Assembly: GCA_964291675.2 (NCBI GenBank)
Contig: OZ219866.1
Coordinates: 1,344,001 to 1,408,000 of the forward strand
Length of the DNA: 64,000 nt
Direction of reading: 5' to 3'
DNA from: Alphaproteobacteria bacterium
Lineage (GTDB): Bacteria; Pseudomonadota; Alphaproteobacteria; MPNO01
The notes under the pieces are model-generated. The model ran no database searches and was not told the DNA's origin. It was given only the letters and a program-made list of their open reading frames with translations. Below, one piece after another: positions 9 through 43,358 of this stretch. Each line of letters starts with the position of its first letter. Position 1 is the stretch's first letter. Position numbers and translations under genes: made by a program.

Positions 9-98
9 TGGCGGAGGGAGTGGGATTCGAACCCACGATACCGTTTCCGGTATACACGCTTTCCAAGCGTGCGCCTTCAGCCGCTCGGCCACCCCTCC
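9..98 (-). tRNA. tRNA-Ser (anticodon GGA)
   Basis: Reverse complement reads GGAGGGGTGGCCGAGCGGCTGAAGGCG...CACGC-TT-GGA-AA-GCGTG, long variable arm, GGTTCGAATCC, encoded CCA end. Confidence 0.96.
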
Positions 99-25692: not shown

Positions 25693-25779
25693 GCCCAGGT
25701 GGCGGAATTGGTAGACGCGCAGGTTTCAGGTACCTGTGACCGCAAGGTCGTGGAAGTTCGAGTCTTCTCCTGGGCACCA
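25693..25779 (+). tRNA. tRNA-Leu (anticodon CAG)
   Basis: GCCCAGGTGGCGGAATTGGTAGACGC, CAGGT-TT-CAG-GT-ACCTG, variable arm, GTTCGAGTC, CCA end; TTGACA upstream at 25633. Confidence 0.96.
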
Positions 25780-39367: not shown

Positions 39368-39481
39368 ACAAGACGATCCGTACGCTTCCTGTCGCGGACT
39401 GGACACAACCGATCCCAAGCGCGTCACTATGGCAAAATGTAGCACACCGGCTGCCCGCCGCACGCCTTCTGGTTGATAAAC

Positions 39482-40915
39482 ATGAACGCCGATCCCGCAA
39501 CCAGAGATTCGGAGCGAAGCGAGCGCACCGGCTGGCTCGAGCTGGTGCGCGGCGGGCGGGGGGTGTTCACGGTGCTGCTCAACCTCGCGGTGATCGTGCA
39601 CGGGGTGAACACCTTCGTGCTGTCGACCGTGATGCCCTCGGTGATCGCCGATATCGGCGGCGCGGCGTATTACGCCTGGCCGGCGATGGTCTATCTGATC
39701 GGCACCATCGTCGGCGCCTCGGGCGGCGCGCCGGTCCGCGCGGCGCTCGGCAGGCGCCGCGGCTATGTGGCGTCGGGGCTGGTGTTCGTCGCCGGCAGCG
39801 CGGTCGCGGCGCTGGCGCCGTCGATGGCGATCCTCCTCGCGGGCCAGCTCCTGCAGGGGTTCGGCGGCGGGCTGCTGCTATCGCAGTCGATGGCCCTGGT
39901 GCGCGAGATCTATCACGGCGCGCTGCGCGGCCGGGCGCTCGCGGTGATCAACGCGGCCTGGGTCGCGGCGGCGATGATCGGCCCGGCCGAGGCCGGGTTC
40001 TTCGCCGCGATCGACTGGTGGCGGGGCGCGTTCTGGGCGGCGATCCCGGTCGCCGCCCTGGTCTGCGCCCTCGCCTGGCGCTATGTCGGGGCGTCCGGCG
40101 ATCCCGGCAGGCGCTCGGGCTTCCCGCTGCGCAGGCTGGCGCTGATCGCCGCGGCGGTGATGTGCGTCGCCGCGGCGGGGCAGATCGACTCGGTGCCGGC
40201 GGGGATCGCGCTGGTCATCGCCGCCTGCCTGCTGGTGCGGTTCACGCTCGGGCTCGACGCGCGATCCGACAACCCGATCTACCCGAGGCGCGCGCTGTCG
40301 CCGTTCGCCGATATCGGCGCCGCCTACTGGATGTTCATGATGCTCGCTTTCACCCAGGTGGCGCCGGCGATCTTCCTGCCGCTGCTGCTGGGCGTGCTGC
40401 ACGACGTGCCGGCGCTGTGGCTCGGCTACTACAACATGCTGATGTCGATCGCCTGGTCGGCGGGCTCGCTCGCGGTCGCCCATGTGACCCATCGCGGCAC
40501 GACGCGGTGGGCGATCCTCGCGGGCTTCGCGATCTCGACAATCGGGCTCGCCGGCATGGCGGCGGGCGTGGCCGCGCATCCGCTGTGGCTGCTGGCAATC
40601 TGGTCGATCGTCATCGGGTTCGGGATCGGGGTCTCCAACGTGCTCGCGATCACCTGGACGATGTCGATCGCGGCCAGGGGCGAGGAGAGCCTCGCCGCCT
40701 CGGCGATCCCGGCGCTGCGCTCGCTCGGGCTCGCCTTCGGCGCGGCGGCGACCGGGCTGGTCGCCAACGCCGCCGGGCTCGGCGACGCCACCGATCCCGG
40801 CAACGTCACCCGCGCGCTCACCGCCGTGTTCGCGTTCTGCGCGCTGGCGCCCGCGGTGGGGCTCGTGATGACCGTGCTCTCCTTCGCGGCGAATGCCAGG
40901 CGCGTCAGCGGATGA
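39482..40915 (+). CDS. MFS transporter (paralogue of 15198-16628)
   Basis: MPSVIADIGGAAYYAW, LQGFGGG, WWRGAFW. Confidence 0.87.
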   Translation: MNADPATRDSERSERTGWLELVRGGRGVFTVLLNLAVIVHGVNTFVLSTVMPSVIADIGGAAYYAWPAMVYLIGTIVGASGGAPVRAALGRRRGYVASGLVFVAGSAVAALAPSMAILLAGQLLQGFGGGLLLSQSMALVREIYHGALRGRALAVINAAWVAAAMIGPAEAGFFAAIDWWRGAFWAAIPVAALVCALAWRYVGASGDPGRRSGFPLRRLALIAAAVMCVAAAGQIDSVPAGIALVIAACLLVRFTLGLDARSDNPIYPRRALSPFADIGAAYWMFMMLAFTQVAPAIFLPLLLGVLHDVPALWLGYYNMLMSIAWSAGSLAVAHVTHRGTTRWAILAGFAISTIGLAGMAAGVAAHPLWLLAIWSIVIGFGIGVSNVLAITWTMSIAARGEESLAASAIPALRSLGLAFGAAATGLVANAAGLGDATDPGNVTRALTAVFAFCALAPAVGLVMTVLSFAANARRVSG

Positions 40916-40932
40916 GCGTCCCGCCGCGGCGC
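40826..40932 (+). repeat. Left copy of 107-bp direct repeat flanking the islet
   Basis: 104/107 identical to 42404-42510. Confidence 0.92.
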
Positions 40933-41150
40933 AACGCTCCCACGCCGTTTCGGCCGGAGCCGTGCCCAGCGCGGCGGAGCGGAGACTCTAACGGACTTAA
41001 GTAGAGATCCCGCGGGCGAACCCGGCTGACGAGGAGTCCGGCGCTTCACGGAGGCGCGACGGCCTCTGTTGCCGGGGTAGCGTCATGCCTATATCGTGCG
41101 ATGGAATGCGATGAGTGTCCATGGGATTCGCTGAGCTAGGGAGGCGAGCT

Positions 41151-41330
41151 ATGGGAAAGCCTACCGGCGGAACGCCGTCGGCCACGCACCTGCCGACCCA
41201 GGCCGAGATGGAGCGAATGATCGTCTTCGACGGCACGCCTCACGAGATCTCAACTGCTGTGCTGCGCGGTGGTGCAGTGGGCGGAGAACCTGCGATCTTC
41301 CGAAACGCGGATCCAAAAAAAGTCGGCTGA
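41151..41330 (+). CDS. Small hypothetical protein (59 aa)
   Basis: GGAGG 6 nt upstream of ATG; PTQAEME...TPHEI..AVLRGG. Confidence 0.5.
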   Translation: MGKPTGGTPSATHLPTQAEMERMIVFDGTPHEISTAVLRGGAVGGEPAIFRNADPKKVG

Positions 41331-41340
41331 GGGCGTTCAG

Positions 41341-41592
41341 ATGGCATATCGCAAGAGTAGGCCCCACCCTCAGACTGGGGAGCTACAAAATGGCACCGTA
41401 CTGGAAGTCGTCGATTCTAGCGAGCCGATGATTCGTCTCAAGCTGGAGGACGGAACGCTCGTCCGAATGAAGATATCGATCATCGAGATCATGCGAATGG
41501 ATGAACCGGGTACGGACGGAAAGACCGCCTACGACATCAACGCGAGTTTGGCAGCGACCTTCGTTTCACCGGAGGAGCTGCTGGATGATTGA
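41341..41592 (+). CDS. Hypothetical beta-rich protein (83 aa)
   Basis: EVVDSSEP..LKLEDGT.VRMK; stop overlaps the next start (ATGATTGA). Confidence 0.7.
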   Translation: MAYRKSRPHPQTGELQNGTVLEVVDSSEPMIRLKLEDGTLVRMKISIIEIMRMDEPGTDGKTAYDINASLAATFVSPEELLDD

Positions 41593-42280
41593 TATGTTGG
41601 CTGCTTCCGCTCAAAGCACCCTGGAAAGGGGGGTCGCGGAGACAATCCGGTCGTTCGCGAAGCTGCCGGACGGATGGCATTATGGCACCGGCACGGGCGC
41701 CGTCGATGCTGCGGTGGACACTGCGCTCTATGTCAATTCGCTGCTGATCGACTACGGCGCTCGGAACATCGAAGCTTTCCCCGCTGTCGATGGCGGGATA
41801 TTGGTCTCCGGTTATCACGACCGCGACACTCTGGAAGTTCTCTGTCGCCCGGACGGTGGGATGGATTTTATCCATGAGGTCGACGACGATCTCGTGAACG
41901 AGCAGGACAGCGTTTCGACTAACGAGATCGAGGAGTTTCTGGGAGGCTTGGAGTGGTTGCCACAGAACTTATTCGCCCACTGCACCCAATCTATTTCAGT
42001 AAAGAAAGGGGACGCTTCACTAGTATGGCCTTCCAGCCCTCATCCACAGACGGGGGGATATCAGTATTCGAGACAGAATGCGCCGTTGGCCTTAGTGGAT
42101 GCGAATGTCGCCATATTCATCGCTTCTACCGAAGCGTCGTTGGATTTCCTTATGTCTTCTGGCGGATCGATCCTGATGTTCTCTCAGGGGATTGCCGGCT
42201 CACCTGTGAGCCATCAACGACAGGCGACCCCTGCCACCGGAATATCCATGGATTGGGAAATAATCGACGCAGGAACATGA
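41585..42280 (+). CDS. Hypothetical protein with an LPDGW...FP..DGGI domain and long C-terminal tail
   Basis: Coupled start; acidic N-terminal domain; last about 109 codons overlap the next ORF. Confidence 0.65.
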   Translation: MIDMLAASAQSTLERGVAETIRSFAKLPDGWHYGTGTGAVDAAVDTALYVNSLLIDYGARNIEAFPAVDGGILVSGYHDRDTLEVLCRPDGGMDFIHEVDDDLVNEQDSVSTNEIEEFLGGLEWLPQNLFAHCTQSISVKKGDASLVWPSSPHPQTGGYQYSRQNAPLALVDANVAIFIASTEASLDFLMSSGGSILMFSQGIAGSPVSHQRQATPATGISMDWEIIDAGT

Positions 42281-42393
42281 TGAGGAATCTGAAAGTCGAA
42301 GAGCTGGAGATTTGCGACGGCGAATCCCACAGGCCCTTGACGATTGCGGATATAGAGCTGTTCGGCGCCAAACCGTCAGCGCTGCCGCTCTAG
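41953..42393 (+). CDS. Hypothetical protein, possible ART/RES-like toxin fold
   Basis: GTG start with GGAGG at 41942-41946; LIR...SMAF...GISV...H.NI.G pattern. Confidence 0.6.
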   Translation: MVATELIRPLHPIYFSKERGRFTSMAFQPSSTDGGISVFETECAVGLSGCECRHIHRFYRSVVGFPYVFWRIDPDVLSGDCRLTCEPSTTGDPCHRNIHGLGNNRRRNMMRNLKVEELEICDGESHRPLTIADIELFGAKPSALPL

Positions 42394-42403
42394 TTTCCCA
42401 CCG

Positions 42404-42510
42404 GTGTTCGCGTTCTGCGCGCTGGCGCCCGCGGTGGGGCTGGCGATGACTGTGCTCTCCTTCGCGGCGAATGCCAGGCGCGTCAGCGGATGAGCGTCCC
42501 GCCGCGGCGC
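42404..42510 (+). repeat. Right copy of 107-bp direct repeat flanking the islet
   Basis: 104/107 identical to 40826-40932. Confidence 0.92.
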
Positions 42511-43358
42511 TCCTCGCGCCAGGTGTTGTACCAGGCGGCGGCGAAGATGATCGCAGCCCCGATCAGGATCGGCAGGTCGAAGGCCTCGCCGAACAGCACG
42601 ATTCCGAGCCCGACCGAGAGCGGCAGGCGCAGGAAGTCGAACGGCACCACGAAGCTCGCATCCGCCGCCGCCATCGCCCTCGTCACGCAGTAATGCACGG
42701 CGTAGCCGGCGACGCCGAGCCCGGCGATCGCCGGCAGGTCGGCGAGCTCCGGCGTGCGCCAGACGAACGCGGCCGGGATCGCCGAGAAGACCAGCACGAA
42801 GACGCTCATGTAGAACACGACGACATTGCCGGATTCGCTCGCCGCCAGCCGCTTTGTGGCGATGAAGGCGGAGGCGTAGAAGAACGCCGCGGCGAGCACC
42901 ACAAGCGGGCCGATGCCGAAGCCGAGCCCGGAAGGGCGGACGATGATCAGCGTGCCGGCGAACCCCGCCGCGACCACGGCGATGCGGGCGAGGTCCACGC
43001 GCTCGCCGAGCACCAGGACCGCCATGACGACGACGAAGATCGGCATGGTGAACTGGAGCGCCGACAGCTCGGCCAGCGTCACCATGGTGACGCCGAAGAA
43101 CCACGCCACGTTGCCGGTATAGAGCAGCCCGTTCCTGAGCCCGTGCAAAGCGAGGCGCTCGGTGCGGATCTCCGCGGCGCCCTGGCGCAAGATCCATGGC
43201 GCCATCAGGCAGAGATTGACCACGCTCCTGAGGAAGATCAGCTCGAGCACGTGGTAGTCGGGGGCGAGCAGGCGGACCAGCAGCGCCATCGCGACCAGCG
43301 ACGACGCCGCGCCGATCATGAACAGCGCGCCTTCGATGCGCTTGGAGACGATGGCCAA
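42483..43358 (-). CDS. DMT/EamA family transporter
   Basis: 10 TM, FTMPIF..LGERV, GTLIIVRP, VVPFDFLRLP. Confidence 0.88.
   Translation of the reverse strand: MAIVSKRIEGALFMIGAASSLVAMALLVRLLAPDYHVLELIFLRSVVNLCLMAPWILRQGAAEIRTERLALHGLRNGLLYTGNVAWFFGVTMVTLAELSALQFTMPIFVVVMAVLVLGERVDLARIAVVAAGFAGTLIIVRPSGLGFGIGPLVVLAAAFFYASAFIATKRLAASESGNVVVFYMSVFVLVFSAIPAAFVWRTPELADLPAIAGLGVAGYAVHYCVTRAMAAADASFVVPFDFLRLPLSVGLGIVLFGEAFDLPILIGAAIIFAAAWYNTWREERRGGTLIR

Follow-up and report, generated by a model that had tools for sequence, protein, structure and literature searches.

Why should two neighbouring genes of a bacterial operon share 328 nucleotides (nt) in different reading frames, and what might such a pair of genes do? 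The question is raised by four co-oriented open reading frames (ORF1 to ORF4, of 59, 83, 231 and 146 amino acids (aa)) in a 64,000-nt stretch of an alphaproteobacterial genome (contig OZ219866.1, positions 1,344,001 to 1,408,000; hereafter, the window). ORF4 begins with its own GTG codon at window position 41953, inside ORF3, and both frames stay open over positions 41953-42280, where the GC content is 0.521. An initial annotation of the window had placed the four ORFs and their overlap correctly. The explanation that we favour, and to which we give about an even chance, is that the operon lies on a horizontally and recently acquired 1.47-kb cassette with a toxin-antitoxin-like, possibly anti-phage, module distantly related to the PADLOC candidate PDC-M32, ORF4 being the effector and ORF3 its partner. 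The module is distinguished by an overlap that was apparently created by stop loss and is found family-wide, by unequal selection on the two frames and by an effector gene that is apparently hidden from automatic annotation in its clade.

Whether homologous loci keep the overlap, a question left by the initial annotation, was answered by comparing the loci that carry both genes. All eight distinct loci have both frames open, and the offset between the frames never changes (Table 1). L030, the eighth, was found in one genome out of a phylum-wide sample of 400 others. A Shine-Dalgarno-like motif is present 5' of the ORF4 start in 8/8 loci. Nor do ORF3 homologues end near codon 125, an outcome that the initial annotation had regarded as contrary to its proposal. 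A family profile retrieved 60 ORF3-like proteins, and in the 54 whose domain end could be placed the tail had a median length of 104 residues, being at least 40 residues long in 46 proteins and at most 20 in five; since the profile contained tail columns, this sample is biased towards tailed forms. ORF4 is more conserved than ORF3 in five of the six loci compared by tblastn.

Table 1. Overlap, openness of the ORF3 frame over ORF4 under two null models, and tblastn identity to the window proteins (L017 has the same identities as L016)
Locus	Overlap (nt)	Open run (codons)	Null median (codons)	Synonymous-shuffle P	Permutation P	ORF3 identity (%)	ORF4 identity (%)
Window	328	108	15	0.03	0.018		
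L016	331	109	11	0.035	0.009	71	78
L018	328	108	13	0.05	0.017	60	69
L011	388	128	10	0.0004	0.0004	49.5	70.5
L019	241	79	11	0.38	0.043	28	39.5
L020	274	90	31	0.67	0.175	33.5	39
L022	127	41	17	0.44	0.255	32	31
L030	292	96	41		0.264		

A likely starting point of the overlap is provided by PDC-M32, of whose A and B proteins ORF3 and ORF4 appear, judging from profile comparisons, to be remote relatives. The C-terminal domain of PDC-M32A is matched by the N-terminal domain of ORF3 (PADLOC model: E 0.0057, 13.8 bits for the window protein) and by six of eight ORF3 relatives (best E 7e-6); PDC-M32A positions ~257-365 align with this domain, the motifs DGW..GEG and P..DG.I being common to both, and hhalign gives a probability of 22% with E 1e-3. 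On the B side, the N-terminus of PDC-M32B is matched by four of seven ORF4 proteins (window E 0.0059, 15.2 bits, residues 4-35), with an hhalign probability of 54% and E 1.2e-4 over 39 columns. The PDC-M32B motif R..h.P....R..S.AF.P....LSV aligns with ORF4 residues 4-46; past residue ~46, ORF4 departs from PDC-M32B and has a core of its own, in which C52, H54, D92 and H95 are invariant. The partner and effector-side genes are adjacent and on one strand, with the A-like gene upstream, as in PDC-M32, and both systems are rare and mobile. Family-level membership was not found on either side, true members scoring from 1e-32 to 1e-145 with the PDC-M32A model and from 1e-37 to 1e-51 with the PDC-M32B model; no PADLOC model is convincingly matched by the four-ORF locus, and a genome search with model PDLC04579 did not retrieve the window's genome (G000) at E<=1e-5. 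The view of the initial annotation that the system is wholly undescribed has nevertheless to be given up in favour of this remote kinship. In bioRxiv 10.1101/2024.01.29.577857, PDC-M32 is one of 145 candidates predicted from genes embedded in restriction/BREX loci, and PMC12429752 merely lists PDC-M32 in prophages. Being a predicted candidate, PDC-M32 offers no known mechanism to inherit.

Three true PDC-M32 pairs were found in 400 other genomes of the class. Their A and B genes overlap by just 4 nt, at ATGA, in every case, in contrast to the overlaps of 127-388 nt in the ORF3/ORF4 family, and the +1 frame of PDC-M32B closes after 19, 6 and 6 codons, with 3-4 stops in all. One of these canonical pairs (L031 35..2987) adjoins a Type I restriction specificity gene, a setting that matches the guilt-by-embedding origin of PDC-M32. 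In the ORF3/ORF4 family, the upstream-frame codon that covers the ORF4 start reads TGG in seven loci, including the window, TGC in one and TGT in one, these nine loci including L021, where only a remnant of ORF4 is left. Because TGG, TGC or TGT stands where the PDC-M32 junction has TGA, the simplest reading, which the comparison of junctions indicates, is that an ancestral partner gene ended, and the effector gene started, at ATGA, that the fourth base of this ATGA was changed, and that the partner gene, having lost its stop, then ran into the effector gene. Ribosomes translating ORF3 would now run through the ORF4 ribosome-binding site and the first ~100 codons of ORF4 in the +1 frame. The abstract of PMC2268670 lists three routes to overlapping genes, among them the loss of a stop that separates adjacent genes in different frames.

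Which of the two frames is under selection? Codon-position differences were calculated for four close loci (window, L016, L018 and L011; six pairs). In the overlap, positions 1/2/3 differ by 0.18/0.18/0.43 when read in the ORF4 frame and by 0.18/0.43/0.20 when read in the ORF3 frame. Outside the overlap, position 3 differs by 0.46 in ORF2, 0.44 in the ORF3 N-terminal domain and 0.51 in the downstream part of ORF4, i.e., the third position of ORF4 is as free in the overlap as in non-overlapping genes (0.43 vs 0.44-0.51). Purifying selection acts on ORF4 and not on the amino-acid sequence of the ORF3 tail, as can be seen from the second codon position of the tail frame being the one that varies most. 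The tail (residues 127-231) was modelled by AlphaFold2 as unstructured, with a per-residue confidence (pLDDT) of ~27 from an alignment of 16 sequences; 53% of its residues are A, G, P, S, T or Q, and tails of distant loci share only what the constraint on ORF4 imposes. The initial annotation had proposed that the tail of the partner is overprinted on the toxin gene; a conserved overprinted domain is not supported, the tail evolving as fast as ORF4 wobble allows.

True dual coding, in which the tail would be a functional sequence-specific peptide, e.g., an inhibitory or chaperone-binding arm, is in line with the frame being open across diverged homologues and with the closest pair of loci. Between the window and L016, wobble differences of ORF4 in the overlap fall to 0.22, below 0.48 in ORF2, 0.375 in the ORF3 N-terminal domain and 0.51 in the rest of ORF4. 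First and second positions of the overlap are less diverged in this pair too; dual constraint is therefore no better an explanation of the low value than a younger segment. Since purifying selection on both frames is not seen over the six pairs, and the tail is modelled as disordered in spite of 16 aligned sequences, we consider dual coding quite improbable.

If its sequence is free, is the tail frame open by mere chance? The length of the open run was compared with two null models, a synonymous-codon shuffle of ORF4 (seven loci, L030 excepted; 20,000 trials for the window) and a permutation of codon order (eight loci). Every one of the eight runs is longer than its null median (sign test P 0.008 with eight loci and 0.06 with five independent lineages), and the combined P, with one value per lineage, is 0.01 for five lineages and 1e-4 with L011 added. 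In the four close loci, P lies between 0.0004 and 0.05 under both nulls; in the window, the five stops of the ORF3 frame within ORF4 all fall in its last 38 codons, the first 108 having none (Fisher P 0.001). In this close clade, selection has probably kept the frame open. The competing explanation is neutral read-through: the stop was lost at ATGA, the tail is a useless by-product, and the sequence and codon usage of ORF4 happen to give few stops in the +1 frame. A disordered tail free of purifying selection, whose end point varies by lineage from 41 to 128 codons, is what one would expect in this case. Synonymous shuffles, moreover, leave the frame open in 38% (L019), 67% (L020) and 44% (L022) of trials, and the permutation P is 0.18-0.26 for L020, L022 and L030. 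Taken singly, none of the four distant loci gives a significant value (0.043-0.26 by permutation, 0.38-0.67 by shuffle in the three shuffled); selection for openness is therefore not demonstrated outside the close clade, and across the whole family it is the open frame that is the rule. Neutral read-through is at odds with the values obtained in the close clade, with all eight runs lying above the null median, with the clustering of window stops beyond the overlap, with the long tails of most ORF3-like proteins and with the stops that canonical PDC-M32B genes carry in the same frame. We hold it to be unlikely.

Few long same-strand overlaps have been documented that are kept throughout a diverged bacterial family. 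Published bacterial overlapping genes are, judging from abstracts, mostly single-species and often antisense candidates; ORF3 and ORF4, in contrast, overlap on the same strand, and the overlap is kept across a family in which ORF4 has diverged to 31-39% identity. As in other overlaps that arose by stop loss or overprinting, the younger frame, here the ORF3 tail, is unstructured and compositionally odd. What the ORF3/ORF4 pair adds is a clear candidate origin, the loss of a stop by a one-base change at ATGA, and a polarity that is equally clear: one frame is old and selected, the other young and only kept open.

We turn now to the nature of ORF4. A model built from seven sequences has a pLDDT of 85.7 and a predicted template-modelling score (pTM) of 0.81. 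Foldseek returned nothing below E 0.079 (CC0527, DUF952), its top rows being CC0527, DarT1 and KptA. Exhaustive alignment with VIA-align against 48,161 chains gave 47 rows with Z>=2, by title almost all ADP-ribosyltransferases (ARTs), NAD+ glycohydrolases or Tpt1/KptA. The best match is mouse Tpt1 (Z 5.1, root mean square deviation (rmsd) 3.8 A, 102 residues aligned), followed by Tne2 (4.7), KptA (4.6), CC0527 (3.6) and DarT (2.9-3.0), all matches thus being weak, with Z values in the range (below 8) where, according to the aligner's note, a match may reflect a mere common arrangement. A second structural comparison gave Z 5.0 for Tpt1 (rmsd 3.1 A, 88 residues), and Z 4.5 for CC0527 (101/114 residues); over the two comparisons, the values for DarT reach 3.4. 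In both comparisons, it is the NAD+-binding lobe of Tpt1 to which the ORF4 model aligns (88-102 residues). We tentatively assign an ART-like fold to ORF4 because the list of neighbours is uniform, though the absolute Z values are low. The initial annotation had suggested an ART- or RES-like fold. Its first half stands in this weak form, as fold neighbours of the ART type; a RES domain was not found, there being no Pfam RES match and the Xre-RES and MbcT toxins reaching only Z 2.3-2.4 in the list.

Members of the ART superfamily carry the catalytic signatures R-S-E, H-Y-E or H-H-h on strands 1, 2 and 5. ORF4 differs from them in that no R-S-E, H-Y-E or Tpt1 R-H-R-R signature can be assigned. 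R8 and S37 are located on predicted strands 1 and 2; neither R8 nor R21 is invariant in 62 family members. Invariant in these are C52, H54, D92 and H95, and F22, A26, F27, S37, C43, Y59, P66, W70, C94 and C121 are conserved in at least 90%. The resulting Cys/His/Asp cluster (C43, C52-x-H54, D92-x-C94-H95 and C121; window 42079-42315) is unusual for an ART-type fold. ORF4 has no detectable sequence similarity to any solved ART or Pfam ART family: a Pfam search at E<=1 retrieved no families, the 62 relatives have no consistent Pfam match, and a profile search of PDB sequences gave no matches at E<=10. A viral fold library gave nothing at E<=1e-3. The closest clusters in a protein atlas are unnamed hypotheticals.

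The ORF4 family is nevertheless large. A profile of seven proteins retrieved 581 cluster representatives at E<=1e-3, of which 408 also pass E<=1e-10. With its at least 581 representatives, an ART-like predicted fold and no Pfam model, it is a candidate new effector class for the biology of toxin-antitoxin and defence systems. In the clade of the window, the family is hard to see at the protein level. A word-index search of 5.8 billion protein clusters returned 17 relatives of ORF3 and a single one of ORF4 (P0001), and 15 of the 17 ORF3 relatives are 217-246 aa long (87-100% query cover, 47-78% identity). Once DNA was searched directly by tblastn, ORF4 was present in every related locus. Gene callers apparently keep the longer ORF3 and drop ORF4, which is missing from the protein clusters because ORF3 seems to hide it. 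P0001 itself is a frame chimera that follows the ORF4 frame, then the ORF3 frame, then the ORF4 frame again, and its neighbour P0019 on the same 4,877-bp contig fuses ORF1, ORF2 and the ORF3 N-terminal domain; this contig is indel-ridden and therefore unfit as evidence on gene structure. A shorter version of ORF4 (38 aa, starting at ATG 42277 and forming ATGA with the ORF3 stop) was considered and rejected: the full 146-aa frame is conserved, folds and matches the family from position 1.

Could ORF3 and ORF4 be parts of one gene? A single gene of ~270 aa, made of the ORF3 N-terminal domain and ORF4, might have been broken by a frameshift or sequencing error, or might be expressed by programmed -1 frameshifting. 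Fused proteins do exist in the databases (P0017, 272 aa; P0041, 279 aa; P0068, 271 aa; P0072, 259 aa), the ORF4 frame has no stop in the 10 codons that precede its start, and a formal slippery heptamer, G GGG GGA, is found at 42052-42058. However, the four fusions join at four different places and are therefore consistent with independent indels, P0001 and P0019 stem from one frame-scrambled contig, and the G-run encodes a conserved Gly-Gly of ORF4, its reading in the ORF3 frame not being conserved. The two-frame layout, with a start and a Shine-Dalgarno site of its own for ORF4, recurs in 8/8 loci from unrelated assemblies, and of the 150 family members listed, the majority have 130-150 aa and begin at profile position 1-3. 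A single gene is thus very improbable.

The putative partner, ORF3, has one well-modelled domain. Residues 7-125 (AlphaFold2 pLDDT 76-95) form a sandwich of a helix, a five-strand sheet and a helix. A fold search with this domain gave no clear relative, the best match being Med17C (Z 6.6). TriTu, the immunity protein of an ART toxin, was matched with Z 5.8 (rmsd 2.9 A, 75/87 residues) among unrelated alpha/beta sandwiches, and we treat this likeness of the models as a lead only. Loci L012-L015, retrieved by a genome scan, were dropped, being unrelated proteins that share the string LPDGWHYG by chance.

Many members of the ART superfamily are toxins of toxin-antitoxin, Rhs or secretion systems and have a small immunity partner. 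The module would be of this known general sort, a toxin-antitoxin-like or defence-candidate pair with an ART-like predicted effector. ORF4 would be a small effector, nearest to Tpt1/KptA, DUF952 and DarT, that uses NAD+ to modify nucleic acid or protein and so arrests growth, and the folded N-terminal domain of ORF3 would be its cognate partner, either an antitoxin or a sensor. We infer a toxin-antitoxin or abortive-infection function from models and comparisons of sequences: the candidate effector is small, has an ART-type predicted fold and always comes with a small partner, the module is distributed in a patchy and mobile way, and it is kin to a pair embedded in restriction loci. As is usual for type II toxin-antitoxin systems, two small co-oriented genes, predicted to be co-transcribed, are distributed in a mobile and patchy manner. 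The ORF4 family was found in only one of the 400 other genomes sampled from the phylum. An IS1595 transposase adjoins the module in L017; PIN, DUF433 and DDE-transposase fragment genes are near it in L011; and in L019 it is located between CpeT- and GlgB-type genes. The distribution of the module is sporadic and mobile, and its neighbourhoods are unrelated. Searches of plasmid and phage collections by tblastn gave no match to ORF4 in either and none to ORF3 in plasmids.

It may also be that the module is not a toxin at all and that ORF4 is a benign NAD+- or phosphate-handling enzyme, a Tpt1/KptA-like RNA 2'-phosphotransferase or a DUF952-like protein, with ORF3 as an accessory subunit. The best structural neighbours are indeed Tpt1/KptA and the uncharacterised CC0527 rather than classical toxins, no PADLOC model is convincingly matched, and known defence genes do not adjoin the locus in the window. 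Such an enzyme would hardly be expected to occur in a rare and patchy family that is inserted at different places beside insertion sequences and toxin-antitoxin genes, to be kin to a pair lying beside a Type I restriction specificity gene and to be always accompanied by a small partner gene. The N-terminal RNA-binding lobe of Tpt1 and its sequence signature are, moreover, absent from ORF4. We find the benign-enzyme explanation doubtful.

Several points weigh against the explanation that we favour, a horizontally acquired toxin-antitoxin-like module with ORF4 as its effector. The fold matches of ORF4 are weak, no classical ART catalytic triad can be assigned in it, and its Cys/His/Asp cluster, as far as the alignment goes, might just as well belong to a metal site or to a different (Cys/His) chemistry. 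The kinship to PDC-M32 is distant, an E value of ~0.006 for the window proteins having to be set against those of true members, and PDC-M32 is itself only a predicted candidate. The window locus does not lie in an obvious defence island and sits between two transporter genes. Finally, the frame often stays open in shuffles of L019, L020 and L022, and no significant RNA structure was found around the ORF4 start, where the single-sequence fold has a z of 0.32.

What could the long read-through be good for? The tail is translated because no stop is present, and since its sequence is free while its openness appears to be kept, a role of the act of translation, or of bulk properties of the tail, would be favoured over a role of its sequence. 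Speculatively, ORF3 ribosomes that cross the ORF4 start would abolish termination-reinitiation coupling and might hinder initiation at ORF4, so that synthesis of the effector would stay below that of the partner; the floppy tail, in turn, may shorten the lifetime of the partner. Carried to its end, this line of thought makes the out-of-frame read-through an adaptive translational governor, in which effector synthesis is inverse to partner synthesis and a disposable tail sets the half-life of the partner, an idea that we put forward as an outside chance. A hairpin that sequesters the ORF4 Shine-Dalgarno site was considered as another device and rejected: in addition to the z of 0.32, the four-sequence consensus fold reaches -14 kcal/mol with 2/33 covarying pairs, and no RNA structure supporting another coupling mechanism at the ORF4 start was found in either fold.

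A precedent of a kind is hok/mok/sok, in which an upstream reading frame extends deep into the toxin gene, out of frame with it, and in which translation of the one probably controls translation of the other. The upstream frame of hok/mok/sok is a short leader without protein function that promotes toxin translation in a system with an RNA antitoxin (type I). The ORF3/ORF4 pair resembles it in having an upstream frame that reaches far into the downstream gene in another frame, and differs from it in that this frame is the tail of a folded partner and in that no antisense RNA or structure was found by Rfam and RNA folding. The pair is suited to a simple test of whether translation across a downstream start regulates toxin dosage. 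Should the governor idea be true, it would constitute a previously undescribed way to set a toxin-to-antitoxin ratio, and annotation would be systematically missing an ART-like effector family that lies under a longer ORF in this clade.

How did the operon come to its present place? The window, like its genome, has a GC content of ~70%, and positions 40933-42403 form a 1,471-bp stretch with a GC content of 0.579, flanked by DNA with 0.708 and 0.692 (Table 2). This insert is present in a single copy in its own genome and is missing at the same site in 11/11 genomes of the same genus, where both flanks adjoin; in nine of the 11 congeners, the alignments of the two flanks share 84-114 nt, and in the other two they end 129 nt (G002) and 76 nt (G011) apart. 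A repeat search and pairwise alignment showed that the insert is bordered by two direct copies of a 107-nt sequence, 97% identical (3 mismatches) and 1,578 nt apart, which are equally close (94-95% identity) to the single copy in the nearest congener. As the repeat contains the 3' ends of both the MFS and the EamA transporter genes, the insertion has left the two genes complete, one on each side. At an empty site, they would overlap tail-to-tail by 11 nt; the duplication of host sequence therefore keeps both of them whole. No integrase, transposase or tRNA gene was found in or adjoining the insert, the closest tRNA genes being at window positions 9-98 and 25693-25779. Single-crossover integration of a small circle and the action of a trans-acting integrase are possibilities for the insertion route. 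Direct repeats of at least 25 nt flanking the module were not found in L011, L017 and L019.

Table 2. Coordinates of the operon, its signals and the surrounding features in the window
Feature	Position	Strand	Remarks
MFS transporter gene	39473..40915	+	Left neighbour of insert
107-nt direct repeat, left copy	40826..40932	.	Holds MFS gene 3' end, stop 40913-40915
Low-GC insert with four-gene operon	40933..42403	+	Low GC; empty site in congeners; single-copy
ORF1, 59 aa	41151..41330	+	GGAGG at 41140-41144, 6 nt 5' of ATG
ORF2, 83 aa	41341..41592	+	Weak GAGGG overlapping ORF1 stop; stop overlaps ORF3 start by 8 nt
ORF3, 231 aa	41585..42280	+	GGAGG at 41571-41575; ATG within ORF2 end, 8-nt overlap
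ORF3 N-terminal domain, residues 1-123	41585..41953	+	Motifs LPDGWHYGxG, FPxVDGG; proposed ORF4 partner
ORF4 Shine-Dalgarno site GGGAGG	41941..41946	+	Inside ORF3 codons 119-121
ORF4, 146 aa, GTG start	41953..42393	+	Candidate effector; GGGAGG 41941-41946, 6 nt upstream
ORF3 tail, residues 124-231 and TGA stop	41954..42280	+	+1 frame of ORF4
107-nt direct repeat, right copy	42404..42510	.	Holds EamA gene 3' end, stop 42483-42485 (minus strand)
EamA transporter gene	42483..43358	-	Right neighbour, convergent to MFS gene

At the left end of the insert, a GC-rich stretch of ~50 nt (40937-40985) recurs at G000:C1:930183-930233 (82%) and in the congeners G001, G002 and G010 (88-94% over 36-48 nt). 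The stretch resembles a short repeat spread through the genus, so that the insert may have a left end that is local in origin.

The initial annotation had described Shine-Dalgarno sites or coupled starts for all four ORFs. Clear sites were seen for ORF1, ORF3 and ORF4, that of ORF2 being weak, and ORF2 and ORF3 are joined by their 8-nt overlap. A consensus scan gave no plus-strand promoter and no convincing terminator, and the two Rfam matches at E<=1 are at chance level and both outside the operon. Searches of Pfam, PHROGs and NCBIfam gave nothing for the four ORFs, the sole match, at E 0.3, being that of phrog_10753 to ORF1, for which no Pfam, PHROG, PADLOC or NCBIfam match below E 0.3 was obtained.

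The close relatives of the module retain ORF1 and ORF2 upstream, whereas distant loci carry a different small upstream ORF. ORF2 is 70-83% identical by tblastn in L016, L017, L011 and L018, and its substitutions are coding-like, positions 1/2/3 differing by 0.20/0.09/0.46. The small ORFs 5' of ORF3 in L019, L020, L022 and L030 resemble each other and weakly resemble the C-terminal half of ORF2.

Two metagenomic loci carry a decayed ORF4 and may be effector-loss variants. In L021 (1073..1255), only the first ~15 residues are ORF4-like and are followed by an unrelated 252-aa ORF, and in L023 (1503..1718) ORF4 ends after 71 residues, ORF3 being identical to that of L022. A 151-nt contig from run X3, which is labelled as a different organism, has a single difference from window positions 42102-42252; judging from this one short, low-depth contig, some other organism may carry the module in almost the same form.

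By tblastn, homologues of ORF1 precede the module in L016/L017 (42% identity) and L011 (36%). A paralogue of ORF1, 57 aa long, is located in a different context ~200 kb from the window locus (L028 1477..1650; G000:C2). The two proteins have the motif ..PTKAEMEE.I.ID....L..AVL..G in common, and ORF1-like small genes may constitute a separate widespread family.

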